Origin: a virus
IMG/VR virus record: IMGVR_UViG_3300046787_000316
Location: 1-64,000 of that record
Reading direction: 5' to 3' (one strand)
DNA: 64,000 bases
In this document: positions 1-20,183 of the stretch, piece by piece
How positions within the stretch are numbered: the stretch's first letter is position 1
Layout of the letters: the number at the start of each line of letters is the position of its first letter
Position numbers and translations under genes: made by a program
The notes under the pieces: generated by a model
What the model was told of the DNA's origin: nothing
Databases searched by the model: none
What the model saw: the letters and a program-made list of their open reading frames with translations, nothing else

Positions 1-1109
1 GCTCTTAATTTTTCGTTTAATATTTTAATCATTCTACCATCGTTTAATGATAGTTCTTTTGCTCTTTCGATACTCTTCATAGATTGTTCTAATTTGAATT
101 CACTATTATCTAATAATCTGTCCAAAGTTTCGAACAAATCCTTTTTGAATTTGAAGAACATTCCATCTGGCTCAATCTCTCTGTAACAATCTGATTCCTG
201 ATATATCATAGGTGTTCCGTTCATCATACAATCGGTTGCGGCAACACTCCATCCGTAATTGGTTTGCCTCATTTGAACTCCAACGGTACAAGATTGTAAC
301 TTTTTATAGTAATCATGCTTAGCCACTTTCGTATTATCAATCCAACTATGTTCCGGCTTACCATCCAATTGCGGCACCCATACAGTGAAATCTTGTCGTT
401 TTTCTCTATACTCTTCCATTAATTTAATGAAAGCGGGATATCCTTTATATGCAGCTGCTCTGTGATTGAATACAATGATGTTTTGCTTTGGTTGTGGAGT
501 TTCTATTATTTTAGAATTATCCACTCCCAAATTCCACACTACAAATATATCATTTAATTTTTGAATAAACAAATCATTGAACCATAATTTTGCTTCCTCC
601 AATACTCTATTCTTTTGGTCTTGAGTATTTAAGAAACAAGTATCCATTTGAGATACTCCCAATAATTCAATTGGCATCCATCTCCATTTATTTTTTCTAT
701 CTTCAGCGTTGCATGATTTCATTTCCCACCAATGTCCATATCCAATAACTTTGGTGTTGAAATCATTCTTATATCTACCAACTTGTGGCCAATCAGGTAA
801 ATGGGAGTAGATTACATCGTATTCCAATGTTTCCATTAATCTATTCATATCCGGTGGATACGTTCTCATTTTAATCATATCACCTGAAAATGGTAGGATG
901 TGTTGTTTCACATTTATCAAATTCAACTTTTTTACCGGCTGCGGTAATATGATATTCCAAAAGAATTCACCTTCCGATTCCAATCCTTTAATGTGGTTGT
1001 ATATAACATCCACAAAGGAATCCTTTTCAATATTGCCAGAGTTAGTGATATTTGGTATCACTAACACTTTTCTGGCTTTATTGTAATCTATTGTTTCCCA
1101 AAAACTCAT
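1..1109 (-). CDS. GT-B fold glycosyltransferase (3' end runs off window)
   Basis: Not in ORF track. ATG at 1109 opens an uninterrupted frame MSFWETIDYNKARKVLVIPN...DVIYSHLPDW...IVFNHRAAAYKGY...GWSVAATDCMMNGTPMI...LNEKLR to the window edge. R-x4-KG and late-domain 'D-x-MxxGTP' motifs fit GT4-like enzymes. Confidence 0.8.
   Translation of the reverse strand, partial: MSFWETIDYNKARKVLVIPNITNSGNIEKDSFVDVIYNHIKGLESEGEFFWNIILPQPVKKLNLINVKQHILPFSGDMIKMRTYPPDMNRLMETLEYDVIYSHLPDWPQVGRYKNDFNTKVIGYGHWWEMKSCNAEDRKNKWRWMPIELLGVSQMDTCFLNTQDQKNRVLEEAKLWFNDLFIQKLNDIFVVWNLGVDNSKIIETPQPKQNIIVFNHRAAAYKGYPAFIKLMEEYREKRQDFTVWVPQLDGKPEHSWIDNTKVAKHDYYKKLQSCTVGVQMRQTNYGWSVAATDCMMNGTPMIYQESDCYREIEPDGMFFKFKKDLFETLDRLLDNSEFKLEQSMKSIERAKELSLNDGRMIKILNEKLR
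542..573 (-). promoter_or_regulatory. Possible internal host-type promoter (TTTG-N20-TATATTTG) inside the glycosyltransferase gene
   Basis: Exact match, including the 20-nt spacer, to the intergenic promoters below, but it lies within a CDS. Confidence 0.4.
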
Positions 1110-1124
1110 TCGATTATATTAATT

Positions 1125-2618
1125 TTACTTAGTTTGTTTAAATTGTTTGATGAAATCATCACCATGTATATTAAGTTTCTGATTATTTAAAGTTTTAGAT
1201 GTTACAACTAAATTGGTGTATTCAGTAACACCCCCACGATTGATACCATAACTACGAGGAACATAGTGGTCTCCAGCGATATCCTTTTCATCTAATGGTT
1301 CTCCTGTAAAATAACATTTACAATCTTGCTCGTACCATTTTTTGAGTATATCTCCTTTGGCAAATGTTTCACGCGGGTCTAATTCTACAACACCAAATGA
1401 TTCTAAATTACCTTTAAGTTCCATATCTAATACACTACAAATACCACCAATAGCGTTTGCATTCTTACCACCAAACATTTCATTGAATGGCTTCATAGGA
1501 GTCTTATTTGGCATCTGATAATTTACCCAAAGTTTATCGGAGGTATCACTCCACTTTTTATACACATCGAAAAATTTAGTAGTAAATACGTCAACTCTAA
1601 GTTTTCCATATTTAGATTTCAATTCATAACCATATAGAATCAACATCTGCGATAGCATCGGTGTTAATCTTTGTTTATATTCCGTTGGAACTGATGTGAT
1701 TACTTTTTGAGAAAAATCAAGTAATTCATCTACATTCTTTTTTAATTTTTTAAATTTCTCTTCAGTCGAATAATCACCATTTTCGGCTTGAACTTTCTTA
1801 ACCCATTCCGTAAGTTGTGCAGGTTGTACACCTTTTCGAAACCCATTTATGTACATAAAAATAAGTTCCGATAACCACTCATCGACTTCCATTCTACAAT
1901 TAAGTGTAAATGATTTAGAAAAGTGAAGTAATGATTTTACAGGATTCGTACCATCGATTTGAATGGTTGTAAATAAAGCATGTTTTTCAAATCTAGCAGT
2001 ATTACGGATGTATGACGATAAGAAACCACGAATTGCATTACGAATTTCCTGTGGTTTCATTGTATTTACTTTATTCAAAATATTAATAAACAAATCAGCA
2101 GTCATTTCATCATCCATATTTTCATACCATGCACATAAAATTCGGTAATCTAAAATTTTGTTATATAGATTTGGAAAGTTTTGTCGTAGTTCTTCGGCAG
2201 ATAATCCGCTGATATCACATCCATCAACTACTAAATTCTTAGGTAAATTATATTCACCTTTTAAAAATCCTAAAATAGATGTAACACGTTGTTGACCATC
2301 TACTAATTCATAGTAAAATGCATTACCACGTTTAGTAACTCTGATGTGAATTTGTGGAATTTTAGCGTATCCTTTTAATAAGATAGTTAATAATAAGTTT
2401 TGTTTAAAAGTTAAACTAGCCACCTTTTCTCGTTGATACTCTCTAGCACCCGTTTCAAGTGTTTCGCCTTCTTTTTCTTTTAACCATTTAATACTCACAT
2501 TACCATCGGTAGATGTCGGAGCATCCGTTTCACCAAAACATTGTTCAGCGATTTCGCATTCAATAAAATCTCTTTTCATAATTAATACTTGTGTTTTAAA
2601 TCGTTCAACCTTCCTCAT
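1125..2618 (-). CDS. DUF262 (ParB/Srx-like) + C-terminal HNH nuclease, GmrSD/SspE-like architecture; likely start ATG 2579
   Basis: EYQRE, YELVDGQQRVTSI and F-x-NILN...PQEIRNA motifs of DUF262. C-terminal CYFTGEPL...GDHYVPRSYG..RGGVTEYTNL...NNQK His-Me finger. Confidence 0.85.
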   Translation of the reverse strand: MRKVERFKTQVLIMKRDFIECEIAEQCFGETDAPTSTDGNVSIKWLKEKEGETLETGAREYQREKVASLTFKQNLLLTILLKGYAKIPQIHIRVTKRGNAFYYELVDGQQRVTSILGFLKGEYNLPKNLVVDGCDISGLSAEELRQNFPNLYNKILDYRILCAWYENMDDEMTADLFINILNKVNTMKPQEIRNAIRGFLSSYIRNTARFEKHALFTTIQIDGTNPVKSLLHFSKSFTLNCRMEVDEWLSELIFMYINGFRKGVQPAQLTEWVKKVQAENGDYSTEEKFKKLKKNVDELLDFSQKVITSVPTEYKQRLTPMLSQMLILYGYELKSKYGKLRVDVFTTKFFDVYKKWSDTSDKLWVNYQMPNKTPMKPFNEMFGGKNANAIGGICSVLDMELKGNLESFGVVELDPRETFAKGDILKKWYEQDCKCYFTGEPLDEKDIAGDHYVPRSYGINRGGVTEYTNLVVTSKTLNNQKLNIHGDDFIKQFKQTK

Positions 2619-2698
2619 TTGGTTGGTATTTACCGATTTGTTTAACTTTCTTTGATGTGAGTGTTAAGTAGGATGCTCACTTCCCCCGTTATTATATT

Positions 2699-2730
2699 CA
2701 AATATACAAAATTATATTGACATAGCCAAA
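2699..2730 (-). promoter_or_regulatory. Bacteroidota sigma70-type promoter for the DUF262-HNH gene
   Basis: Minus strand TTTG(2730-2727)-N20-TATATTTG(2706-2699). Confidence 0.8.
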
Positions 2731-2739
2731 TTATTTAGC

Positions 2740-2766
2740 AAAAAAAAGTGGGCTATCTACCCACTT
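2740..2766 (-). terminator. Intrinsic terminator after the DUF4338 gene
   Basis: AAGTGGG-tagatag-CCCACTT stem followed by a T8-type run on the minus strand. Confidence 0.8.
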
Positions 2767-3979
2767 CTTTCAAATAATTATCTTTCATTTGTTCCCAAGT
2801 CATTCCAATTGCATCTACATAAAATAGAACCTCTGGTTTGATTTTACCTTCATCGTATAACTTAGTATATCGTTTAATTGCTTTATCTTTCCACCACTTT
2901 ACAGTGTAATCGTTACCATCAGCGAATTTCTTTTTAAGAATCAAATCCTTCTCTTCAATTTTAGATTGTAAGAATTCATTACCATTCTCATACATTTGTG
3001 CGAAATAAACACCTCTCTGAAATCCGTGGTCATAAGCGTTACCCTTTATACCCAATTCTTTGAAGATTGCTTGAATAATCTTTTGTTTGATTCCACTTAC
3101 AGGTCCGTTTCTATCGTAGCCCATATTAGCGCCATTACGTTCTCTCTCATCCATAATGTGTAACTTATACCACTCTGAACGATTTTCTTTTAACCATTGA
3201 TGCCATGGGTTATAAACTTTATCATCCGGCTTTGTAGAAATCTTACCTTTTGATTCTCCCAATGTTTTGAAATGTGGAATACCATTGTATTGAGAATGTA
3301 CTCCATATAAAGATGTTGTACCTACCCCAACTAATGGATTATCATATTTCTTTTTCCAATAATCTCTAACTTCCGGTGAAGTTGCCAATGCTGCGATTAA
3401 CTTGCCACCTAAGAAATTATAACCAAATGGTTGTGTAGATACAATAGTAGTTGCAATTGTAGTACAATTCAATTTACCATTTTTAAACTTATCTTCTTTT
3501 TGCCATCCAATGTAATTATCTCTAACTCCTAATGATGTAATATCCGAACCTAAGCAAATCTGTCCTAATATCTTACCACTAACTCTATCCTTCACATAAC
3601 ATTTAACATTACGACCTGGATTAGCCTGAAATTCCATTGTGTGAATCAATCTACGGATTTCAGTCCATCGAGTTGATTCTTTTGCATTATCATCTACGAT
3701 ATCAACATACGGGTCAATTGCTTCTATTTCAGCAATAGTTAACTCTCTGTTGGTGATATCAGTAGGTTTCCATAATGAATCATAATGAGATTGTAATACT
3801 GGCAACTTTTTCATATTACCAATTAAATCCTCATTCCACTCCATCCACTTTTTGTATAGAGTTTGCTCTTCGACTGACATTGTTCTTAGATAATCCAAAT
3901 TATCAATGAACTTCTTTTTCATTTCATCATAATCGAATTCTTCGGTATTAGTTTGTTCGCCTGTATCCCAAAATTTCAT
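2753..3979 (-). CDS. DUF4338 / Druantia DruA-like protein
   Basis: PGRNVKCYVKD..SGKILGQICLGSD, RDNYIGW, QPFGYNFLGGKLIAALA, GTTSLYG..SQYNG..HFKTLGESKG match my recollection of the DUF4338 pattern. Confidence 0.75.
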   Translation of the reverse strand: MKFWDTGEQTNTEEFDYDEMKKKFIDNLDYLRTMSVEEQTLYKKWMEWNEDLIGNMKKLPVLQSHYDSLWKPTDITNRELTIAEIEAIDPYVDIVDDNAKESTRWTEIRRLIHTMEFQANPGRNVKCYVKDRVSGKILGQICLGSDITSLGVRDNYIGWQKEDKFKNGKLNCTTIATTIVSTQPFGYNFLGGKLIAALATSPEVRDYWKKKYDNPLVGVGTTSLYGVHSQYNGIPHFKTLGESKGKISTKPDDKVYNPWHQWLKENRSEWYKLHIMDERERNGANMGYDRNGPVSGIKQKIIQAIFKELGIKGNAYDHGFQRGVYFAQMYENGNEFLQSKIEEKDLILKKKFADGNDYTVKWWKDKAIKRYTKLYDEGKIKPEVLFYVDAIGMTWEQMKDNYLKEVGR

Positions 3980-4005
3980 ATTAATTCTTTAAATCGTTTA
4001 TATTA

Positions 4006-4037
4006 CAAATATACGAAAAATATTTGGATTTACCAAA
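4006..4037 (-). promoter_or_regulatory. Bacteroidota sigma70-type promoter for the DUF4338 gene
   Basis: TTTG-N20-TATATTTG on the minus strand. Confidence 0.8.
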
Positions 4038-4833
4038 ACTTTACGGATATTTCTGAGTCTGGTTCAATCGTTGTATGAACTTCTACTCCTTTGTTGTATT
4101 CTCTTGCATTTTTAGGATATGGTCTGATTTCATGCTTCAATCGTTTAATCAAATCCTTTTTATCCTTCTTGTCAGCTCCAATAATCTGAATGTATCGATG
4201 TTTTGGTGGTTCTTCTCTTCTCCAAAATTGCTTATACCCATCCTTACCAATTTCTCTTCTAAGGTGTTCTAAGTTACCACTACCCCACTTTGTAAACACA
4301 GTCCTGCTATGTATCCATTTGAAAGGGTCATCCGATAATGAAATACCATAATTTGGCATTAGTGCAATATCGGTATTTAATCCTTGATAAATCCAATTGG
4401 TTGCTTGATAAATACCACCTAGATGTTCTTGTCCATTATCAGCATACGATATAAGAACTTTGATATTCTTATCATTCTCTCTGAACCATTTGAATGATTG
4501 TCCTAATGCGTATGATTCAATATTAGAACCATATCCATCATCACAATAAAGACGGGTTAATTCTAATACATTATCTTTAGTCAATCCCTCACAAACTGAT
4601 GTAGGTGCTTTTGCTCCTACGGGAAATCCATAAACTAAACATCCAATTAATTTATCGGAATCACCGATTGCATTAGCTTCATCCATTTTATAGAATATTC
4701 CTAATGCGTATCTACAAGCAGTCCAAGCGTGAGTGTAGTGTTTTTTTACGATAATCTCCTTTGCTACGTGACTTCCGATTTCCCTAACGGAAACTTTCGA
4801 TGTATCACAATAATTTTTGTTAACTTCTTTCAA
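4030..4833 (-). CDS. Mom-like (GNAT-fold) DNA adenine-modification protein, paralog 2
   Basis: KKHY, LELTRLY...ESYALG, KVLISYADNGQEHLGGIYQATNWIYQG, KHRYI motifs of the Mom family. Confidence 0.8.
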   Translation of the reverse strand: MKEVNKNYCDTSKVSVREIGSHVAKEIIVKKHYTHAWTACRYALGIFYKMDEANAIGDSDKLIGCLVYGFPVGAKAPTSVCEGLTKDNVLELTRLYCDDGYGSNIESYALGQSFKWFRENDKNIKVLISYADNGQEHLGGIYQATNWIYQGLNTDIALMPNYGISLSDDPFKWIHSRTVFTKWGSGNLEHLRREIGKDGYKQFWRREEPPKHRYIQIIGADKKDKKDLIKRLKHEIRPYPKNAREYNKGVEVHTTIEPDSEISVKFW

Positions 4834-5581
4834 TTGGTTCTAATTTTATAACTTCTTCAATAAATTCATCTTGTTGTTTTGGATAAGGTAGTTGTGGGTA
4901 TTTTAATTCCTTTAATAATTTTTTTCGTTCTCTACCATTCAAAAGTATATAAACATACCGATGCTTTCTTGGTTCTTTCCTAATCCAAATGGGTAAAGAG
5001 ATTTGCTCTCTAATCTTAGCGGGGTCGTTTGTTCCATAATATGGAAATATTGTTCTACCATGTTGCCATTCACCACCTTCGGTTAATTGGAATAACCAAC
5101 TATCACTCCATCTGATTTTGTTTCCTTGATAAATCCAATTTGTCGCCTGATATACAGTTCCTAAATGACCTGCCTTTGGGTCTGAATATGATATTAATGC
5201 TTTGATTGATGGAACATTGGTTCTTAACCATTCAAATGTTTTACCAACGAACCAACTTTCGATATTACTACCATACCCATCAAATACAAATAAACGAGTG
5301 AGTTCTAACACTTCCGTTCTATCCAATGATTCACATATAGATGCGCCGGAGTTTCTACCAATAGGGTCACCATAACAGGCGACACCAATTAGTTGTTCAT
5401 TTACTCCACCAAAGAATTTGTGTTCATCGTTTGAAACATAAAACAAACCAATAGCATAAGATACCTTCGTCCATATCCCACTATAATGGTTATTGACAAC
5501 GATATCTTTTGCTACGTTTTTGTTTATTTGCCTTACGACTAATTTTGAAGTATCACAATATAACTTATTAGGCTCTTTCAT
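4820..5581 (-). CDS. Mom-like (GNAT-fold) DNA adenine-modification protein, paralog 1
   Basis: NNHY, LELTRLF...ESWFVG, KALISYSDPKAGHLGTVYQATNWIYQG, KHRYV. Confidence 0.8.
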   Translation of the reverse strand: MKEPNKLYCDTSKLVVRQINKNVAKDIVVNNHYSGIWTKVSYAIGLFYVSNDEHKFFGGVNEQLIGVACYGDPIGRNSGASICESLDRTEVLELTRLFVFDGYGSNIESWFVGKTFEWLRTNVPSIKALISYSDPKAGHLGTVYQATNWIYQGNKIRWSDSWLFQLTEGGEWQHGRTIFPYYGTNDPAKIREQISLPIWIRKEPRKHRYVYILLNGRERKKLLKELKYPQLPYPKQQDEFIEEVIKLEPIERS

Positions 5582-5798
5582 ACGGCCACTTTATCATGTG
5601 TGTCCACGTTTGGTTTGTAACTATTTTCTTAATGTTAGCTGGTGAAACTCCGTAATTTCTAGCTATGACATTAACGTTTCTATGACCCATTTTGTATAGC
5701 TCTCTGATTTGCAGTATCTGCTCTTCAGTCAATTTGTGCATCGGATGCGCTTCTCCTCTTAACATATATCTAATATAACTATTTTTTTTGATATTCAC
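5568..5798 (-). CDS. Small stand-alone helix-turn-helix DNA-binding protein (HNH-endonuclease C-terminal type)
   Basis: RGEAHPMHKLTEEQILQIRE...IARNYGVSPANIKKIV...TWTH. No nuclease domain. Confidence 0.7.
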   Translation of the reverse strand: MNIKKNSYIRYMLRGEAHPMHKLTEEQILQIRELYKMGHRNVNVIARNYGVSPANIKKIVTNQTWTHMIKWPYERA

Positions 5799-5807
5799 AA
5801 ATTTATT

Positions 5808-6071
5808 TTACTTTAAATGCTCATTTAATGAATTTATGTAAGTTAATTTAGCTTGTGCTCCGGCGAATCTATCAACCTCTACACCATCTTTTTCAATGAT
5901 AATAGTTGGAACTGAACGAATACCATATTTTGTAGCCTCATCAAATGCGGTATCTACATCATACTCTTCAAATACTACATTTGAGAATTGTCCTTTTACT
6001 TCGTTAATTACTGGAGCTAGTGCTCTGCAAGGTCCACACCATGCTGCGGAGAATTTTTTTAATGTTACCAT
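5808..6071 (-). CDS. trxA: Thioredoxin
   Basis: WCGPC active site and cis-Pro SVPT. Confidence 0.95.
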   Translation of the reverse strand: MVTLKKFSAAWCGPCRALAPVINEVKGQFSNVVFEEYDVDTAFDEATKYGIRSVPTIIIEKDGVEVDRFAGAQAKLTYINSLNEHLK

Positions 6072-6925
6072 AATTTTAATTGTTTACTACGTTTTATTGA
6101 TAATAAGTAATGCTCATTTAGCATACTATATTCTTTTTCAAATTTACTACTAAATTGTGCTTCGAATTCTTTACAATGAAATATAATCGATTTACGATTA
6201 TGTTCATATATGTCTATACATTCTAACCACATACTGTAGAGTTCCTCTTTTGGTTTGTTTTTTAAATCCAATATAAGTTTTTCTACTGCCTTCATTCTAA
6301 TCGAATCATCCATTTCATCATAACTCTCATCGATGATATTTGAAAATGTTTTGAATCCCATTATTTTTAGATTCTTTAAAACATTCTTCTGCCCTATCAC
6401 AATGAATGGTCTTGGGAATGCTAATGCTTTAAATGTTTCTTCTGATATAAATGTTGAATCAATTGATAAGATTGCCGTATCATATTTTTTTTCATTTACA
6501 ATCTGAAACATATCACCTTCGAAATCCGTTTCCAACCTATATGGAAAATCACCAGAATCAAAAAATTCAAGTGGGGTGTTGGAATTGATGTGATATGGGT
6601 AATAATAAAAATTGAATTGTAAAAATCCTAATAGATTCTCATATTCTGTGCTTCTATTCTCATAGAAAATATGTAACTTCTTAGTATTTATTTTCTTTTC
6701 TAAAAAGAACTCATGTATTCTATATAAATTTAATATTGATTCAGGGGTGATTGGTTCACCCCCTTCACAATAAAATATTTTATAATCTCTATAAGTTTCT
6801 TCGTAAAAATTCAACAATTCAGAGATTTCATCAGCCGTATATGTTAATAATATAGGATGTGTAATGATAATACTTTTGGAGTTACCATCTATTGATATGA
6901 AATCTTTGAAATTATTATCCTTCAC
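6065..6925 (-). CDS. Hypothetical protein, possibly a glycosyltransferase-like family (FISEETFKAL..PRPFIVIG...GFKTF..IIDESYD)
   Basis: Long ORF overlapping both neighbours. The motif resembles a widespread phage family; function unclear. Confidence 0.55.
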   Translation of the reverse strand: MKDNNFKDFISIDGNSKSIIITHPILLTYTADEISELLNFYEETYRDYKIFYCEGGEPITPESILNLYRIHEFFLEKKINTKKLHIFYENRSTEYENLLGFLQFNFYYYPYHINSNTPLEFFDSGDFPYRLETDFEGDMFQIVNEKKYDTAILSIDSTFISEETFKALAFPRPFIVIGQKNVLKNLKIMGFKTFSNIIDESYDEMDDSIRMKAVEKLILDLKNKPKEELYSMWLECIDIYEHNRKSIIFHCKEFEAQFSSKFEKEYSMLNEHYLLSIKRSKQLKLW

Positions 6926-8696
6926 AACTTACACAAGTTTCATCCATAGCCTTTGCTGCTATATCACCTCTTAAAACCGATTCCGTTCTCATATAGTAAA
7001 GTGTTTTAACACCTTGCTTCCAAGCTTCTAAGTGAACCTGATTAATCCATTTTGGTTCAGCCGTTGCAGGGAATGCCAGATTTAATGAAACCGCTTGGTC
7101 GATGTATTGTTGTCTTACACCAGCTTGTCTTACTAAATCCAATTGGTTGATTTCTTTAAATGTTTTAAATACATCCTTAACTGAACTACATCTATGTTGA
7201 TGCTCTTCAGCGGTTACATCATTACATTGTACCAATTTGCCATCTAAGTAACACCACTCATCTAAGAAGTCTAAATCTTGTACAGAACCACCATCTGCTA
7301 AAATCTTATCCCATACTTCTTTGGTATTTTTACCAAGTTTACGAAGTACCTTTTCCAATTCAGGGTTCTTTCTAATGAAAGTTCCTTTTGATGTCTGTTC
7401 CGTAAATACATTAGCTGCCCAAGGTTCAATACCACTACTTACGTTACCACTCAATTTAGAGTTTGATACCGTAGGTGCTACTGCTCTTAGGTGAGTATTA
7501 CGGAATCCACTTTCTTTACACCATAGGGGTTCACCATATTCATTTGCTAAATCTCTACTTGCTCTTTCAGATTCAATCTTTAATTGAGAGAAAATCTTAC
7601 GAGTTTCAAATTGAGCTTGTAAACCTTCAAATGGTAATCCTTTTTGTTGTAGGTAAGTGTGCCATCCTAATACACCCAATCCCAATGCTCTACCTCTTTC
7701 TGCTGAACGAACTGAATTCTCAAATCCTTTCATATTTTTAGCTCTCTGAATGAACTCTTCCAATACACCATCTAAGAACACAGTTGCTGTGTACACTAAA
7801 TCCGTATCTTTCCATTCATCGTATTTTGCTAAGTTTAAAGAACTTAAACAACAAACAAATGAATGTTGCTCATCGGTATGTAGAACGATTTCAGAACAAA
7901 TGTTAGTCATGTGAACTTTTAATCCATTCTTTTTGTACATTTCAGGGTTTTGTTTGTTAACATTACCTTTGTACATAATATAAGGTTCACCCGTTGCTTT
8001 ACGTTTTTGAAGTATTTTACCCCATTTACGTCTAGCTTCCGAATCTCCTTCTTCTACTTTCTTCATAAACCTATCACTAATAACCACACATTGATGTAAA
8101 TTAAGCGATTGTCTATTAACATCTCCCTTTGGTTCTCTAATTTCTAAGAAATCTTCGAAATCTTTGTGTTCAACTTTGATGTTAACCGAAGCTGCCCCTC
8201 TACGAACTGAACCCTGATTGGTTGCAAGTATCGTAGAATCGTAGATTTTAGCAAATGGTATAATACCATCACTTGTTCCGTTTCCAGTGATTTTAGAACC
8301 GGCAGGTCGTATCATATTGATTCCAATACCAACACCACCACCATGCTTAGCTAAAAGCATTAATTCTAAATTCTTAGAACCGATTTCATACACACTATCA
8401 CCCACATCGATACCGAAACAAGAGATTGGTAAACCTCTATCTGTACCTGTGTTTGATAATACTGGCGTTGCTAAACACAACCAACCTTTCCACATATAAT
8501 CGAAAAACTTTGTTGCTAATTGTGGTTTTTCCAATCTCTTAGCAACTGCCGTAGCAACTCTCCAATATGCATCTTTAGGTTTCTCACCAGCTTGTAGGTA
8601 TGTTTTAGATATAGTTTTTACATATATCTCATTGTTACCCCAATGTGGGAAGTCTACATCTACTTCCCAACCATATTCTTCTCCGTAATTTCTCAT
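6915..8696 (-). CDS. nrdA: Class I ribonucleotide reductase alpha subunit (no ATP cone)
   Basis: PISCF, TNICSEI, CCLSSLNL, APTVS, TLYYMR and a C-terminal CVSCEG. Confidence 0.97.
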   Translation of the reverse strand: MRNYGEEYGWEVDVDFPHWGNNEIYVKTISKTYLQAGEKPKDAYWRVATAVAKRLEKPQLATKFFDYMWKGWLCLATPVLSNTGTDRGLPISCFGIDVGDSVYEIGSKNLELMLLAKHGGGVGIGINMIRPAGSKITGNGTSDGIIPFAKIYDSTILATNQGSVRRGAASVNIKVEHKDFEDFLEIREPKGDVNRQSLNLHQCVVISDRFMKKVEEGDSEARRKWGKILQKRKATGEPYIMYKGNVNKQNPEMYKKNGLKVHMTNICSEIVLHTDEQHSFVCCLSSLNLAKYDEWKDTDLVYTATVFLDGVLEEFIQRAKNMKGFENSVRSAERGRALGLGVLGWHTYLQQKGLPFEGLQAQFETRKIFSQLKIESERASRDLANEYGEPLWCKESGFRNTHLRAVAPTVSNSKLSGNVSSGIEPWAANVFTEQTSKGTFIRKNPELEKVLRKLGKNTKEVWDKILADGGSVQDLDFLDEWCYLDGKLVQCNDVTAEEHQHRCSSVKDVFKTFKEINQLDLVRQAGVRQQYIDQAVSLNLAFPATAEPKWINQVHLEAWKQGVKTLYYMRTESVLRGDIAAKAMDETCVSCEG

Positions 8697-8706
8697 AAAC
8701 TATTTT

Positions 8707-9720
8707 TTAAAATATATCATCCCAATTTTCACCTTCTCCTGCTTTAGAATAATCCGTTGGCCTCATTGCGAAGAAATCTGTATGAGTAACACCACCTGTA
8801 AGATGGTAGAACCAATCTAATTCGGATGCTTTCTTCTCATTGAATTCAAAGTAATCATCCCCACCTTGCATTGGGTTATATCCTAATTCTGCCAATTTTT
8901 CATTAACTCTCTTTGTGATGAATTCTTTCAAATCACCTGCTTTAAGGTTTTCTAAATCACCCATTTCAAAAATCTTATCGATAAACTTATGTTCTAAATC
9001 AATGATAATTTTAGCTGCTTCGTAGATATCATCTTTAGCTTCCTCTAATAATTCAGGAAACTCATCGCACATGTGTCTGAATAATTGTACTCCCATTTTA
9101 GAATGAAGAGATTCATCTCTAACACTCCACTTCATTTGTTGTCCGATTCCTTTCAATAGATTTCTCATTTGAAACGAATACAATACAGCGAATGATGAAT
9201 AAAGTGCAACTCCTTCAGCGAATGCCGAAAAGATTGCCAATGAACGTGCTACTTCTTTTCTAGCAATTGGATTTGTATCCAAATCTTTTGGAGTCCATTC
9301 AGCGGTTGTATTGGTTAATAATTCAAAACGTTCTTTCATAGTCGAATCATGTAAGAACCCTTCAAAATCATCTAACCCCAATGTTTCATTGAGATATGAA
9401 TATGCGATTGAATGGATTGTTTCTTGCGAACCAAATGCCATTGCCATCTGTCTAATCTCGTGTTTTGGAAACCATTTGGTAACCATACCAGTCCAATAAT
9501 CAGATACCGCACATTCTGTTTGAGCAAACCCTAAGAGAATGTTTCCAACTAAATGTTTTTCCGATGGTGAAAGATTTTCATTCCAATCCTTAACATCGCC
9601 TTGCATTGGTATTTCGGTGTGTAACCAAAATGCCTGCATTTGTAATAACCATCCTTCATTATAATATACTGGATATTCAAATGGTTTAAAAGGAATTCTT
9701 TCTGTAAATAATTTGCTCAT
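8707..9720 (-). CDS. nrdB: Class I ribonucleotide reductase beta subunit
   Basis: FAQTE, QETIHSIAY, FAEGVALYSSF, RDESLH and a C-terminal DFFAMRPTDY. Confidence 0.97.
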   Translation of the reverse strand: MSKLFTERIPFKPFEYPVYYNEGWLLQMQAFWLHTEIPMQGDVKDWNENLSPSEKHLVGNILLGFAQTECAVSDYWTGMVTKWFPKHEIRQMAMAFGSQETIHSIAYSYLNETLGLDDFEGFLHDSTMKERFELLTNTTAEWTPKDLDTNPIARKEVARSLAIFSAFAEGVALYSSFAVLYSFQMRNLLKGIGQQMKWSVRDESLHSKMGVQLFRHMCDEFPELLEEAKDDIYEAAKIIIDLEHKFIDKIFEMGDLENLKAGDLKEFITKRVNEKLAELGYNPMQGGDDYFEFNEKKASELDWFYHLTGGVTHTDFFAMRPTDYSKAGEGENWDDIF

Positions 9721-9815
9721 AATTTGTTTTTTATGTTAGAGATGTAGGTATAACTATGGTTCGTTTTTATAAATTTTCTTTTTTCTTTAGAAAACTTTAT
9801 ACAACTTTTCAACCA

Positions 9816-11171
9816 TTACCCCATATTCTCAACATACTTTTTGTGTAATAATTTTTTCTCTAAATTCTCTCCGTTTTTAGAGTCTTTGGTTGCATTCATT
9901 CCATCTTGCGATGTTGCTGCGAATACATCCATAATCCCGTGAAAAGTATCAATCTTCGCTGGGAAAGTCATTCCATCAGGTCCAAATCGATTTTTAACGA
10001 TGTGAATACGACCTGTATTTGATAACTTATCCTTTGTTTTTCTACTAACACTCATAATGAAATCAGCCGTTTGTACTTTCTTATAAGAATCTCCAACTGA
10101 ATCTGCTCCAATTACTTCGTGCTCAATAGCTGCTCTGTTTGTTTGTGTTGCTGTCCAAATAGGAATACCTGCTTCACCACTCAAACCTCTAAGTTCCTCA
10201 TAGATTCCACCCAATTCAGCGTATAATCCATCTCTACCACTACCTGATTTTAATAAATCGGCGTAATCGATGATGATTAAATCCGGTGCAAATCCAATTT
10301 GTTTTAATTTTTCAATATGAGCTGCAAGAGTCTTAGAAGATGCGAACTGTGGTGGATAGTATTTAATACGAACTCTACCTGGCGTACCTTTAATTTTTCT
10401 GATAATCTCATCTTTCCTCTCTTTATGTTCCGAAGTTTGGATTCCAGTCAAAATTGTAGTGTATCGTTGTCCCACATAACTTTCGGATAACTCCAATGAA
10501 TAATGTAAAACATTTTTACCTTTTTGCAATGCCGAACATGCTATCTTTGATAAGAACCAACTTTTACCGATACCCGATGGCGCCATTACAACACCCAATT
10601 CACCAGGTCCTAATCCCCCATCCATTAATTCATCAATAACTTCCCACCCAGTGGATACCGAATTACGTTTTACATCTTCCATAATAAGTTCAAACTCATC
10701 GATGTAATCCATACCTAAATCCGATTCTACACCCACTTTGGATGCCGCCATCATTGTATCAATGATTTGTTCGTAATTACCTGCTTTAAGCAAGTCTACG
10801 GATTTGAATAAGGCCTCTTTAACCTTTTGATTTTTAGCAAATGTAAGATATTCTTTCTTTACATACGGTAAATCTTCTGAACCTACTTGCGTATAAACAT
10901 TTTTTAGTTGGTCAACTACGGTTTGTTTCAACCCTTTGTCCTCAATCTCGCCTACTTTGATTTTGAACACTTCCATTGTTGGAACTGAACGATACTCATT
11001 AAAGTAGTGCAATACCGAATCGATAATCCATTGGTTTGCTTGTGATTCAAAAAATGCCGGTTTAGTGATTTCGTTTACCTGTTCAAGAAACTTAACATCT
11101 GTTATAAGAGAAGCAACAACTTTAGATTGATACGATTGACCATATTTGACAAGTGTATCTATTGCTTCCAT
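9816..11171 (-). CDS. Replicative helicase (DnaB / T4 gp41-like)
   Basis: Walker A APSGIGKS, SLE, IIIDYADLL, TATQTNR, KNRFG. Confidence 0.92.
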   Translation of the reverse strand: MEAIDTLVKYGQSYQSKVVASLITDVKFLEQVNEITKPAFFESQANQWIIDSVLHYFNEYRSVPTMEVFKIKVGEIEDKGLKQTVVDQLKNVYTQVGSEDLPYVKKEYLTFAKNQKVKEALFKSVDLLKAGNYEQIIDTMMAASKVGVESDLGMDYIDEFELIMEDVKRNSVSTGWEVIDELMDGGLGPGELGVVMAPSGIGKSWFLSKIACSALQKGKNVLHYSLELSESYVGQRYTTILTGIQTSEHKERKDEIIRKIKGTPGRVRIKYYPPQFASSKTLAAHIEKLKQIGFAPDLIIIDYADLLKSGSGRDGLYAELGGIYEELRGLSGEAGIPIWTATQTNRAAIEHEVIGADSVGDSYKKVQTADFIMSVSRKTKDKLSNTGRIHIVKNRFGPDGMTFPAKIDTFHGIMDVFAATSQDGMNATKDSKNGENLEKKLLHKKYVENMG

Positions 11172-11413
11172 TATTTTTTAGTTTTCTTTCTTGCTAACTT
11201 TTTTTCTTCGATTGATAATTCTTCTACCGTTTCCGATACTTCTACTACCACTTTAGGTTGTTGGGTTGGTTTGCGAAGTGCTTTCCACTCCGATTTTGGA
11301 CAGAACGCCCATACACCAGTACTTACTTTGTTATCCGCTTCCGATTCGGTTACTCTACGGATTGTACCGATTTTATTATCCTTTGTTTCTTTTACTACTT
11401 TAATACACTTCAT
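11171..11413 (-). CDS. Hypothetical protein
   Basis: 80-aa ORF packed between helicase and groES on the coding strand. Confidence 0.7.
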   Translation of the reverse strand: MKCIKVVKETKDNKIGTIRRVTESEADNKVSTGVWAFCPKSEWKALRKPTQQPKVVVEVSETVEELSIEEKKLARKKTKK

Positions 11414-11440
11414 ACTGTTTGTCCATGTTTAGTTTAAAAA

Positions 11441-11746
11441 TTATTTAATTACCATTAAGATTTCTGATTCTCTTAATAGGATGTAGGATTTTCCACCTAC
11501 TTTGATGTCTTGCCCCTGATGATATGGTGGTAAAATTACCTCATCACCAACCTCAACACTCATTGGAATCAATGTTCCGGCTTGTGTATAGATACCAGGT
11601 CCAACCGATTCTACTTTTGCACGTTTTACATCTTCACTTCGTACTGAATCAGGGATAATGATACCACCTGCCGTTTGTGAAACTTCCAAATCTAATTCTG
11701 TTAGAAGAACTCTATCTCCTAAAGGTTTTGCTGTTTTGTCTGCCAT
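11441..11746 (-). CDS. groES: Co-chaperonin GroES (Cpn10)
   Basis: KPLGDRVLL, TAGGIIIPD, VGPG, VGDEV, LRESEIL. Confidence 0.95.
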   Translation of the reverse strand: MADKTAKPLGDRVLLTELDLEVSQTAGGIIIPDSVRSEDVKRAKVESVGPGIYTQAGTLIPMSVEVGDEVILPPYHQGQDIKVGGKSYILLRESEILMVIK

Positions 11747-11749
11747 TGT

Positions 11750-12808
11750 TTAAAATTTTGCTATGTGAGAAAATGTGGATTGTAACCAATCGGTAACATT
11801 CGGAAATGCATCCAACACCGATGATTTTAATCCTACTTTTAAAAATTCTTGTTTACTGAACTTAGGTACTGGCTCTTCGAATCTATCAATGATTTTCATT
11901 CTAAGGTTACCACTAAACGTTGGTTCAGATAACTGCATTAAGGTACGATTTCTTTCTAAGATTTCCAAATTATTTTCAAATAATTCGTGTCCTTTTATTT
12001 TCTTTGGTTGAGCTTTAATATACTCCAACATAGATTCAGTAGTATGAACTTCTTCATCTGCTAATATTGGGAATGCTTTAAGAATCGTTTTTAATCCTAA
12101 TCCACTAATACCTTCTACGTTATCGGATTTATCACCATCAATTATTCTGAAATTGATAAAATTGTGCGGGTGTATCCCAAATTCCTCAACTACTTCCGGT
12201 ATGTTATAGATTTTCTTTTTTGAAGGTGAATATACACTTACATCTTTGTTTACCAATTGTAAGAAATCTTTATCGGTACTCATTATTACAACTTTCTCAT
12301 TTTCTTTCTTTAATTGGGTTGCTATGTAAGCCATAACATCATCTGCCTCAATTCCATCGTAAATCATAATAGTAACAGGTAGAACTGAAAGTAACTCACC
12401 CAATCCCGTCATTTGACGTTTCATCGATGCACTTTCCTCTTCCGGTGTCATTTCAATAGATGCGGCACGATTCAATCTCATTTTGATTTTGTTCTTACCT
12501 CTCTCCGATTTGTAACCAGAATATATTTCTTTTCTGCTATTAGAACCTCCTTTACCATCGAATACGATGACAACTCGTGTAGGGTTGATTGTACGGATGG
12601 CGTAGCCGATACTTTTTAAAGTACCGACTATTCCCCCAATGTGGTCACCATTCTCATTAAGATTTGGTGCAGTTGACCAAGAACGGATAAATGTATTAAG
12701 ACCATCTATCACTAATGTTTTAGAGTTACGTTGTAAATCTCCAAAATCATTGTGTTCTCTATCTATTTCTTTTAGTATTTCTAAAAACCTTTTGTTAATC
12801 TGACTCAT
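11750..12808 (-). CDS. 5'-3' exonuclease / flap endonuclease (T4 RNase H-like)
   Basis: IDGLN, VFDGKGG, IEADD, STDKDFLQL, GDKSDNVEGISGLG. Confidence 0.93.
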   Translation of the reverse strand: MSQINKRFLEILKEIDREHNDFGDLQRNSKTLVIDGLNTFIRSWSTAPNLNENGDHIGGIVGTLKSIGYAIRTINPTRVVIVFDGKGGSNSRKEIYSGYKSERGKNKIKMRLNRAASIEMTPEEESASMKRQMTGLGELLSVLPVTIMIYDGIEADDVMAYIATQLKKENEKVVIMSTDKDFLQLVNKDVSVYSPSKKKIYNIPEVVEEFGIHPHNFINFRIIDGDKSDNVEGISGLGLKTILKAFPILADEEVHTTESMLEYIKAQPKKIKGHELFENNLEILERNRTLMQLSEPTFSGNLRMKIIDRFEEPVPKFSKQEFLKVGLKSSVLDAFPNVTDWLQSTFSHIAKF

Positions 12809-13898
12809 TTCCTTCGTCCGTTGTTATTTCAACTTCATCCGATGATGTTGTTTTGTATTGTAAAATTGTTGCTTCGCAAATCCTACGATAGATTTGGTCT
12901 TTAAGATTTTCGTTTTCAAGTAACTTCATAAAATCTTTCGATTGGAATTTGAAAACTTCACCAGTATCAATATCTACATATTCATACCAAGCTCCACCTT
13001 GCTTAACCAACTTCTGGTCTTTCATTACTGAAATCCATCCTCCGAAATTATCAATACCTCTATCAAAGAAGATATCAAAATCGGCGTGTCTTAATGGCGG
13101 CCCCATTCTGTTTTTGATAACCTGGCAACGTACTTTAATACCTACGATTCTATCTCCGGCTTTAAGTTGTCCCATATTCTTTAAACGAACTCTAACAGAT
13201 GCGTGGAATGCTAATGCCTTACCACCCGATGTTGTCCAAGGGTCACCGAACATTGCGTTCATTTTTTGTCTTAACTGATTCGTAAAGATTAAAGCGATTG
13301 ATTGTCTACCAATCATATTGGTAATCTTTCTCATTGCTTTAGAAATGATAATTGCTTTATCGGTTGCATACCCATCTTTACCATAATCGGCTTCTAACTC
13401 CTTATGTGTCGATGCTGCTGCTACTGAATCCACTACGATAGTTACTAATCTATCTTTATCTCCTTTACGAACTTGCTCAATAATTGTTTCACATGCTTCG
13501 AAAATACCTTCTACGGTATCAACTGAAACATATAGGAGTTTTGAAACATCTACCCCAATTGCTTCTAAGAATTCTCTACTAACTGCGGTTTCCGTATCAA
13601 TCAATACTGCTACACCACCTTTACGTTGTGTTTCAGCAAGGAGATGGGCGGAGAGCAAAGATTTTCCACTTTGCTCTAAACCCGTAATCTCTGTAATACG
13701 TCCAACTGGCAATCCACCATAAGGGCGGTTTGATATTGCCACATCTAACATAGCGTTTCCGGTAGATACCCAATCCTTTACGTTGGTAGGAGCATCGCCA
13801 CCCTCATCTGTTAGAAAGTAAGCAATCTTACCATCCTTATTTTGTTTGTTTAGAGAATCGGCAAGTAAACCTGCTAAATCTTCTTCTCTTTTTGCCAT
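12795..13898 (-). CDS. recA: RecA/UvsX recombinase
   Basis: GLEQSGKS Walker A, IDTE, VVDSVAA, FTNQLR, TSGGKALAFHASVR, KNRMGPP. Confidence 0.95.
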   Translation of the reverse strand: MAKREEDLAGLLADSLNKQNKDGKIAYFLTDEGGDAPTNVKDWVSTGNAMLDVAISNRPYGGLPVGRITEITGLEQSGKSLLSAHLLAETQRKGGVAVLIDTETAVSREFLEAIGVDVSKLLYVSVDTVEGIFEACETIIEQVRKGDKDRLVTIVVDSVAAASTHKELEADYGKDGYATDKAIIISKAMRKITNMIGRQSIALIFTNQLRQKMNAMFGDPWTTSGGKALAFHASVRVRLKNMGQLKAGDRIVGIKVRCQVIKNRMGPPLRHADFDIFFDRGIDNFGGWISVMKDQKLVKQGGAWYEYVDIDTGEVFKFQSKDFMKLLENENLKDQIYRRICEATILQYKTTSSDEVEITTDEGNESD

Positions 13899-14889: not shown

Positions 14890-14921
14890 CAAATATACGA
14901 AAGTTTTTTGTAATTACCAAA
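14890..14921 (-). promoter_or_regulatory. Bacteroidota sigma70-type promoter for SSB
   Basis: TTTG-N20-TATATTTG. Confidence 0.8.
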
Positions 14922-15717: not shown

Positions 15718-15749
15718 CAAATATAACAAAAATAATTTAGAATTCCAAA
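15718..15749 (-). promoter_or_regulatory. Bacteroidota sigma70-type promoter
   Basis: TTTG-N20-TATATTTG. Confidence 0.8.
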
Positions 15750-19325: not shown

Positions 19326-19356
19326 CAAATATACAAAATTTATTTGTTATTTCAAA
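19326..19356 (-). promoter_or_regulatory. Bacteroidota sigma70-type promoter for the polymerase
   Basis: TTTG-N19-TATATTTG. Confidence 0.7.
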
Positions 19357-20151: not shown

Positions 20152-20183
20152 CAAATATATATATATTTTTTCACTAAACCAAA
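20152..20183 (-). promoter_or_regulatory. Bacteroidota sigma70-type promoter for the PhyH-like gene
   Basis: TTTG-N20-TATATTTG. Confidence 0.8.

Follow-up and report, generated by a model that had tools for sequence, protein, structure and literature searches.

The first 64 kb of a 137-kb virus contig in IMG/VR (IMGVR_UViG_3300046787_000316), a stretch with a G+C content of 33% that is referred to hereafter as the window, open with a row of contiguous, co-oriented genes on the minus strand (positions 3–5798). Hidden Markov model (HMM) scans confirmed the labels that a first-pass annotation had given to this row: a helix-turn-helix (HTH) protein, two Mom-family proteins (MomA and MomB), a DruA/DUF4338-family protein, a DUF262-HNH protein and a GT-B-like glycosyltransferase (GT). 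The row is probably best explained, in a reading that we hold with moderate confidence, as a DNA-hypermodification set embedded in the replisome genes of aquatic T4-like phages, accompanied by a swappable, mobile nuclease cassette located 5' of the GT gene. Gene content, protein fold, synteny, the boundaries of the nuclease insertion and incongruent patterns of sequence similarity are the observations on which this explanation draws. The coordinates of the features discussed are listed in Table 1.

Putative DNA-modification genes in a phage replication module

The genes of the row are found together again in hundreds of related viral contigs, demonstrating that they are not a chance juxtaposition. 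In the window the end of the contig truncates the row within the GT gene, with only the last GT codon missing. Relatives continue past the GT with genes encoding DNA polymerase B (PolB), the sliding clamp, MazG and the clamp loader, and thus the row belongs to a T4-type replication module. The source phages are a large, uncultured group of aquatic T4-like (Kyanoviridae-like) viruses. Near-identical DNA was sought in isolated phages and gave no match; for the DruA-like gene the nearest cultured relatives are in the Kyanoviridae Pelagibacter phages Mosig and HTVC008M (31–34% identity), and also in cyanomyophages, where the gene is placed between the clamp-loader genes gp44 and gp62.

Synteny was explored around DruA, the nuclease family, the freshwater GT and a marine GT, each in its own survey of IMG/VR contigs, four in all. 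The gene orders observed were Mom-Mom-DruA-(slot)-GT-PolB, Mom-Mom-(slot)-GT-PolB-gp45-DruA-gp44 and PolB-DruA-(slot)-GT, where the slot is the position directly 5' of the GT gene. The DruA-GT linkage holds in both the freshwater and the marine clades, between which PolB is only ∼30% identical, and the pairing is also kept where a 30%-identical GT paralog stands on the other side of DruA. A full-library search returned 1088 relatives of the DruA-like protein, while the GT has at least 586 relatives in viral contigs, nearly all of them encoded close to DruA and PolB. Pairwise identities of these proteins are correlated, with Spearman's rho values of 0.87 for PolB and DruA, 0.68 for PolB and GT, and 0.61 for DruA and GT. 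The first-pass annotation had looked to a neighbourhood survey for co-occurrence of its genes; Mom, DruA and GT indeed recur together, but the nuclease is sporadic.

MomA and MomB display 44% identity and are encoded by genes that overlap by 14 nt. A joint profile of the two proteins matches the crystal structure of the Mom protein of phage Mu (PDB 8bv8) at 5.8e-14. Mu Mom takes glycine from Gly-tRNA and attaches it to the N6 position of adenine in double-stranded DNA, the adduct subsequently rearranging into N6-carbamoylmethyl-dA; the enzyme acts in dimeric form and cannot function without R111, S124 and R151 (Silva et al. 2026, PMC13219725). In the alignment H58, Y59, R111, S124, D149 and Y159 of Mu Mom are invariant in both paralogs, while the Mu-essential R151 is not conserved, being replaced with Lys in MomA and Gly in MomB, although the local alignment may be shifted at this point. 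Among isolated phages Mom occurs once per phage (310 records, with a single place per record), and the closest of these to the window's proteins, from a Polaribacter phage, is 42.5% identical. Complete genomes of the window's clade hold two or three Moms; a 98%-complete relative (G005, the contig of locus L065) has three Mom-family genes at 138988–146043.

MomB is present in every relative with a Mom at the locus, while MomA is absent from the locus in a subset of these, and an obligate MomA-MomB heterodimer is therefore unlikely. A simpler guess is that the two enzymes differ in sequence or donor specificity. A tRNA encoded by the phage was considered as the Mom donor and rejected, since the 64-kb window contains no tRNA gene. 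The HTH_7 gene overlaps the start of MomA by 14 nt and is located directly 5' of the Mom gene, or genes, in relatives; its product may regulate the Mom genes or serve them as a DNA-binding accessory. A distance of 19 kb separates the Mom pair from DruA-GT in one complete genome, and pelagiphages carrying DruA contain no Mom, showing that the Moms are separable from the DruA-GT module.

The match of the DruA-like protein to the PADLOC DruA model spans positions 89–363 of its 407 residues. Seven proteins were submitted to PADLOC, those of the six genes of the row and of the unassigned 286-aa gene, and among them it was the only one that matched a Druantia component, through DruA models alone, the wider window not having been scanned for DruB–E. 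An AlphaFold (AF2) model of the protein, built on 44 diverse homologs, has a pLDDT (model confidence) score of 91.6. In an exhaustive VIA-align comparison of this model with 48,161 PDB representatives Mu Mom (8bv8_B) ranked first, with a Z score of 10.2 and a root mean square deviation of 3.9 Å over 169 aligned residues of the 202-residue chain. Ordinary GNATs followed at Z scores ≤8.8, and the tRNA-dependent FemA at 7.6, while Foldseek returned weak matches to p300/CBP and GNATs. The DruA profile revealed nothing meaningful against PDB sequences, and since a comparison of the DruA and Mom sequence profiles also finds nothing, the link between the two families rests on fold. DUF4338 has independently been called a GNAT by the Aravind group (PMC10853773), and DruA-like structures have been noted in Synechococcus phages, with no function proposed (Phold preprint, 10.1101/2025.08.05.668817). 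No paper in the literature searched ties DruA to Mom, or to GNAT chemistry.

That DruA acts on DNA is indicated by the domains to which it is joined in relatives, in ParB_N-DruA (four proteins), UDG-superfamily-DruA and DUF3102-DruA fusions. DruA also occurs fused with LAGLIDADG and, C-terminally, with a SegE-type GIY-YIG domain and NUMOD3. The proteins concerned, across all of these fusions, are P0125, P0132, P0136, P0214, P0156, P0139, P0267 and P0253. On the basis of the modelled fold, the DruA-like protein is a candidate for a third DNA acyl- or aminoacyltransferase of the row, with a GNAT fold that is closest to Mu Mom. DruA-like folds were also detected in the giant viruses Faunusvirus, Yasminevirus and Dasosvirus (Foldseek against BFVD, E 4e-20 to 3e-9), some of them embedded in proteins of >1100 residues.

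The GT matches Glycos_transf_1 with an E value of 2e-4 and 21.4–22.8 bits, which is under the cut-off of 26.4, while its neighbours in language-model (Atlas) feature space are GT4-family clusters (0.98). The full-length enzyme comprises 370 residues in L004, a close relative of the window. In other close relatives (L002, L005, L006, L025, L029 and L040) the window-type GT, on the 3' side of DruA, gives way to GT', a paralog of 30% identity that is encoded 5' of DruA. The DruA and PolB proteins of these loci are 78–94% identical to the copies in the window and L004, and the exchange is seen at DruA and PolB identities of >90%; backbones of the replisome that are nearly identical thus differ by a swap of the GT allele. 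The idea that the GT uses a hydroxymethyl-pyrimidine was dropped: relatives encode one canonical ThyA (∼300 bits) or ThyX, and the lack of a second thymidylate-synthase-like gene in these phages makes a classical hydroxymethyl-pyrimidine substrate unlikely.

Several proteins of the module terminate in short aromatic peptides. The N-terminus of DruA is M[KS]FW[DE]T in 136 sequences (MKFWDT in the window, 3962–3979) and that of the GT is MxFW[ED] in 116 sequences (MSFWE, 1092–1109), with MNLF[ED] in 58 marine GT sequences. MomB ends with [KN]FW in 94 sequences (KFW, 4030–4044). A similar pattern is found in the replication proteins, with FFSF, FFGF or FFAF at the C-terminus of PolB in 124 sequences and MSFF or MAFF at the N-terminus of gp44 in 91. 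No terminal aromatic tip was found in MomA or the nuclease in the loci of relatives (L002–L305). T4-type polymerases possess a clamp-binding C-terminal tail, and the analogy suggests that the tips of DruA, GT and MomB may be a docking tag for the clamp or the replisome.

The nuclease cassette and the slot upstream of the glycosyltransferase gene

The boundaries of the nuclease cassette are evident from a comparison of the window with the nuclease-free relatives L004 and L013. Homology ends precisely at the stop codon of DruA (2754) and restarts at the start codon of the GT (1109), and in the nuclease-free relatives a mere 1–2 nt separate the end of DruA from the GT ATG. A terminator-like hairpin followed by a U8 run spans the DruA stop codon of the window (dG −16.2 kcal/mol, z −4.56; 0 of 200 shuffled sequences fold as well). 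Its 3' arm and T-run belong to the insert, the 3' arm being absent from the L004 junction. The insert also contains a promoter-like site of the Bacteroidota −33/−7 type, TTTG-N20-TATATTTG, which would drive expression of the nuclease and the GT.

The promoter motif, TTTG-N19–21-TAnnTTTG, occurs nine times in the window compared with 1.93 expected, a number that none of 100 shuffles reached. Seven copies are on the gene strand (542–573, 2699–2730, 4006–4037, 14890–14921, 15718–15749, 19326–19356 and 20152–20183, minus strand) and are very similar in sequence. The motif suggests that the host belongs to the Bacteroidota, which fits the origin of the closest isolated match to the Moms, a Polaribacter phage, and the G+C content of the window. 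Other nuclease cassettes carry similar promoter-like boxes before the nuclease gene, or near-consensus TTGACA-N17-TATAAT; in the marine cassettes it is TTGACA/TATAAT boxes that take the place of the Bacteroidota-type motif. A generic scan for sigma-70 promoters and terminators did not exceed chance (37 versus 32.8 expected) and gave way to the Bacteroidota-type motif and the direct fold of the hairpin.

The true start of the nuclease is probably Met14 (at 2579), as homologs begin there. The family, of ∼490 residues, has 306 matches, while isolated phages returned none. GmrSD_N (DUF262) scores 32.4–34.8 bits, around the cut-off of 33.2, and the C-terminus matches the Cas9/EndoVII-type HNH; no match to DUF1524 was found in the protein. 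DGQQR and the HNH motif GDH..PR..NLV..N are invariant in an alignment of 20 homologs of 48–93% identity. In the AF2 model (pLDDT 85) the HNH domain resembles that of Cas9 (Z 8.1–8.7) and McrA (Z 6.3), while the N-terminal domain resembles ParB-N, SspE and BrxU (Z ∼7.2–7.3). BrxU is also the top Foldseek match of the protein, though a weak one. The comparison with GmrSD and SspE drawn in the first-pass annotation holds for its DUF262 domain, with DGQQR, but not for its HNH domain, which is of the Cas9/McrA type rather than DUF1524.

The nuclease fills the slot in just 1 of the 80 loci centred on DruA, in 4 of the 80 centred on the freshwater GT and in 14 of the 79 centred on the marine GT. Of 43 loci with a member of the family, 32 have it directly 5' of the GT. 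When 129 non-identical loci were compared, the slot was filled by DruA in 41, DUF262-HNH in 28 and a ∼425-residue GIY-YIG-like protein in 24. One member of the GIY-YIG-like family matches the PHROG ‘homing endonuclease'. The remaining occupants are several unknown families and, in isolated instances, HNH, EndoVII, GHKL ATPases or a D12 Dam methyltransferase. The slot behaves like a small conflict-gene island. Examples of the D12-class Dam methyltransferase or the GHKL (HATPase_c_3) ATPases are found at 3292–4137 of L295, 3229–4749 of L188 and 239–1867 of L304. Four nuclease-bearing marine contig fragments, which are only 24–40% complete, show no Mom. A one-off random insertion of the nuclease gene was considered and dropped, as the family is conserved and nearly always 5' of the GT.

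In contrast to the correlations within the replication module, nuclease identity is weakly correlated with that of GT, DruA and PolB (Spearman's rho 0.25, 0.38 and 0.27, respectively). The discordance runs in both directions: in L124 and L176 the GTs are 97.6% identical while the slot proteins share 23% identity, whereas in L115 and L116 the nucleases are 88% identical and the GTs 56%. In the latter pair nucleotide identity of 85–90% is confined to the nuclease open reading frame (ORF), dropping to 51–69% within ∼100 nt of the GT start. The low correlations, the two-way discordance and the confinement of identity to the nuclease ORF point to a mobile cassette at a hot-spot, and not a partner that co-evolves with the modification genes. 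The view that DUF262-HNH is the fixed discriminating nuclease of the system, advanced in the first-pass annotation, is thus not upheld: the gene is absent from most relatives that retain Mom, DruA and GT, occupies a swappable slot, has its own terminator and promoter-like sequences and displays incongruent similarity. In L113, a 301-kb relative, PolB is split by inserted genes for DNA_processg_A/YAcAr, a DUF559 Vsr-like endonuclease and others (8615–13473), and a GIY-YIG endonuclease gene adjoins the DUF262-HNH gene, indicating a genome with a heavy load of selfish nucleases.

Proposed functions and competing explanations

From these observations we infer that DNA is the substrate of both DruA and the GT, together with the chemistry of the marks, the tethering of the enzymes to the clamp and the target of the nuclease, as follows. 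By homology with Mu Mom, MomA and MomB would draw on charged tRNA for an amino acid and attach this to N6 of adenine in double-stranded DNA. DruA/DUF4338 would be a third GNAT of Mom-like fold acting on DNA, and the GT-B enzyme may add a sugar to the product of DruA or to another position in the DNA. The terminal Phe-Trp peptides resemble the PolB tail, and DruA, GT and MomB are thus likely to be active at the replication fork or close behind it. DUF262-HNH is not a fixed part of this machinery but one of several alternative nuclease-type cargo genes in a hot-spot immediately 5' of the GT, and it probably spreads by horizontal transfer, as a gene-sized cassette with a terminator of its own and a promoter of the host type. 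The enzyme is most likely selfish or competitive, cutting the genomes of co-infecting relatives that lack the cassette, in the manner of the free-standing homing endonucleases of T-even phages, and thereby leading to homing or marker exclusion. The presence of two Moms with catalytic residues, the Mom-like fold of DruA and the tight pairing of the GT with DruA inside the replication operon make it very probable, as a prediction, that the phage writes non-methyl marks on its DNA, and in that form this claim of the first-pass annotation stands.

A number of points weigh against this scheme. The modification chemistry of all four enzymes is predicted. MomB has a Gly where Mu Mom needs R151, a comparison of the DruA and Mom sequence profiles shows no link (hhalign probability 0.8%), no solved relative of the GT is detectable by sequence, and GT4-like families mostly act on glycans or lipids. 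With respect to the cassette, DUF262 domains are, to our knowledge, not known from homing endonucleases, and every characterized fusion of DUF262 to a nuclease of which we are aware (GmrSD, BrxU and SspE) senses DNA modification. The nuclease family is well conserved, with DGQQR and the HNH motif invariant over 37–93% identity, which argues for a function under selection. The near-constant place of the nuclease beside the GT could reflect a selected linkage with a compatible modification gene, and not a homing site. Some members of the family are located away from any GT (L110 and L147–L152). The survey counts are also biased by the choice of query and include related contigs. Readings in which the nuclease senses modification, whether in the manner of a restriction-modification or a type IV-like system, are retained, because the known DUF262-nuclease fusions sense marks and the linkage to the GT could be selected.

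It is rather unlikely that DUF262-HNH is a type IV-like enzyme, which cuts DNA bearing another modification flavour, as set by the GT or Mom allele, and spares its own. The nuclease would then be kept beside the GT since the GT sets the phage's own flavour, and would exclude co-infecting relatives. As far as we know, all characterized enzymes of the GmrSD family are modification-dependent, and the Foldseek match to BrxU, weak as it is, points in the same direction. The swap of GT and GT' among close relatives is what would be expected under diversifying conflict over a sugar mark, and the slot also holds genes of the conflict type, the GHKL ATPases and the Dam methyltransferase. On the other hand, nucleases ∼54% identical to that of the window adjoin GTs that are 54–86% identical to the window's, and the 88%-identical nuclease pair adjoins GTs of 56% identity; as similar nucleases sit beside divergent GTs, there is no matching of nuclease and GT alleles. 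Furthermore, the nuclease domain is a classical HNH and not DUF1524.

A non-methyl restriction-modification system, in which Mom, DruA and GT mark self and DUF262-HNH destroys unmarked DNA of the host or of competitors, as EndoII and EndoIV of T4 do with cytosine DNA or SspE does once activated by the mark of its own host, is unlikely. The architecture, DUF262 with a His-Me nuclease, is shared with the modification-sensing enzymes GmrSD, BrxU and SspE, and the predicted co-transcription of the nuclease with the GT, which it directly precedes in the majority of its loci, would fit a functional pair, as would a promoter of the host type that permits early expression of the nuclease. The ParB_N-DruA fusions show that ParB-fold and DruA domains can cooperate, and the nuclease family is conserved with intact catalytic motifs. 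Conversely, most phages that keep Mom, DruA and GT lack the nuclease, and the modification is consequently not there for protection from this enzyme. Nuclease and GT also fail to co-diverge, as described above for the correlation and for the pairs with near-identical GTs or nucleases, unrelated nucleases, an ATPase and a methyltransferase occupy the same slot, and some family members are encoded far from any GT.

A bolder model, which we regard as improbable, is that DruA is a Mom-like writer that places an acyl or aminoacyl group on DNA, that the GT-B enzyme glycosylates this mark, and that DUF262-HNH reads it to distinguish self from non-self. If true, the row would give rise, at the replication fork, to hypermodified bases of a novel class and would include a phage-borne nuclease guided by a non-methyl modification; bacterial DruA would be a DNA-marking enzyme and Druantia I a modification-based self/non-self system.

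It is very doubtful that only the Moms modify DNA while the DruA-like GNAT and the GT-B enzyme act on a glycan, lipid, protein or nucleotide-sugar, for example in cell-envelope or virion glycosylation: GNAT and GT4 pairs are common in polysaccharide pathways, the feature neighbours of the GT are GT4 clusters of the cell-wall type, and relatives, with their canonical ThyA or ThyX, lack a hydroxymethyl-pyrimidine pathway, but deeply diverged phages all have DruA-GT among the genes for PolB, the clamp and the clamp loader, the pair co-evolves with PolB, the structure that DruA matches best is that of a DNA enzyme, Mom, DruA is fused to ParB_N and UDG domains, and the terminal aromatic peptides of DruA and GT resemble the PolB tail.

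Flanking genes and relation to known systems

Upstream of the row are trx, nrdA and nrdB. The first-pass annotation placed the row directly after nrdBA-trx; the trx gene does adjoin it, but a 286-codon gene intervenes between nrdA and trx. Counterparts of its product in relatives are 346–351 residues long and 37–54% identical, compared with 75–96% for the flanking NrdA and Trx proteins, suggesting that this is a second fast-evolving or swapped gene of the row.

Table 1. Features of the gene row and its surroundings in the window.
Feature	Position	Strand	Basis or location
Putative GT-B glycosyltransferase (GT4-like)	3–1109	minus	weak Pfam Glycos_transf_1/Glyco_transf_4; GT4 feature neighbours
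Nuclease cassette, 1.64 kb	1110–2752	minus	inserted between DruA stop codon and GT start codon
DUF262 (ParB/Srx-fold NTPase-like) + helical middle + Cas9/McrA-type HNH	1125–2618	minus	HMM and AF2 model
Promoter-like site, TTTG-N20-TATATTTG (Bacteroidota −33/−7 type)	2699–2730	minus	before nuclease gene
Terminator-like hairpin + U8 run, spanning DruA stop codon	2741–2771	minus	direct fold
DruA/DUF4338-family protein	2753–3979	minus	PF14236, 73.6 bits (cut-off 27), 2e-20; PADLOC DruA, 3.3e-22
Promoter-like site, TTTG-N20-TATATTTG	4006–4037	minus	just 5' of DruA-like gene
MomB, Mom-family GNAT	4030–4833	minus	PF25680, 148.9 bits (cut-off 27.1)
MomA, second Mom-family paralog	4820–5581	minus	PF25680, 153.3 bits (cut-off 27.1)
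HTH_7-type protein, 76 aa	5568–5798	minus	Pfam HTH_7, 3e-5; PHROG HTH DNA-binding protein
Thioredoxin (trx)	5808–6071	minus	upstream of HTH gene
286-aa gene, no family match	6065–6925	minus	between nrdA and trx
nrdA	6915–8696	minus	upstream context
nrdB	8707–9720	minus	upstream context

Hypermodifications of phage DNA influence which hosts can be infected and how well restriction and CRISPR are resisted, and are a source of enzymes for biotechnology. In its general outline, DNA hypermodification accompanied by a mobile nuclease, the row is of a kind already known from phages. What is new is a concrete, testable functional hypothesis for the DUF4338/DruA family, together with the indication of possibly new adenine or sugar marks. 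An abundant group of aquatic phages couples two Moms and a Mom-fold DruA to a fast-swapping GT within the replisome operon, and the adjacent hot-spot, which exchanges nucleases, ATPases and a methyltransferase among phages, is a useful system for the study of phage-phage conflict. As the first-pass annotation stated, no system with this gene set appears to have been described: in the literature searched, no paper reports the combination HTH-Mom-Mom-DruA-DUF262/HNH-GT.

The system nevertheless shares features with several that are well characterized. The free-standing homing endonucleases of T-even phages (the GIY-YIG Seg and the HNH Mob enzymes) resemble the cassette in their sporadic presence in close relatives, exact intergenic insertion, own promoter, cassette-limited transfer and HNH nuclease, as well as in the GIY-YIG-like genes that fill the slot of sister phages. 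They differ in that a DUF262/ParB-fold NTPase-like domain here replaces the usual NUMOD or HTH DNA-binding modules. GmrSD and SspE (BrxU, 7p9k; SspE, 6jiv) share with the nuclease a DUF262 domain with DGQQR, a helical region and a C-terminal His-Me nuclease, and the structural matches to them are weak but consistent. In contrast to these proteins, the nuclease has a Cas9/McrA-type HNH, not DUF1524, and is a phage gene and not part of a bacterial defence island. The type I Druantia protein DruA (PF14236) belongs to the same protein family as the DruA-like enzyme, but the neighbours of the latter in the row are replication and modification genes, and not DruB–E. In T4 the phage marks its own DNA with glucosyl-hydroxymethylcytosine, and EndoII and EndoIV degrade the unmarked cytosine DNA of the host. 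That system, which agrees in concept with the model of the first-pass annotation, similarly combines a GT-B enzyme among replication genes with a phage nuclease, while the row of the window has no hydroxymethylase pathway, its predicted mark is post-replicative and GNAT-based, and its nuclease is optional.

The closest parallel to the modification genes is Mu Mom (PF25680, PDB 8bv8, PMC13219725, PMC7261163), whose chemistry, the transfer of an amino acid from charged tRNA onto adenine, was solved only in 2026 (PMC13219725). MomA and MomB are members of its family and possess the catalytic Arg and Ser, although R151 is not conserved; Mu Mom is the best structural match of the DruA-like fold, and the start of the first Mom gene is overlapped by a small gene, an arrangement also seen with com in Mu. 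The overlapping gene of Mu, however, encodes the Com zinc finger, whereas that of the window encodes an HTH protein. Furthermore, Mu mom is a single late gene of a temperate phage, while in the window two tandem paralogs and a third, much larger enzyme of Mom-like fold are encoded by genes of a lytic phage within its replication operon.

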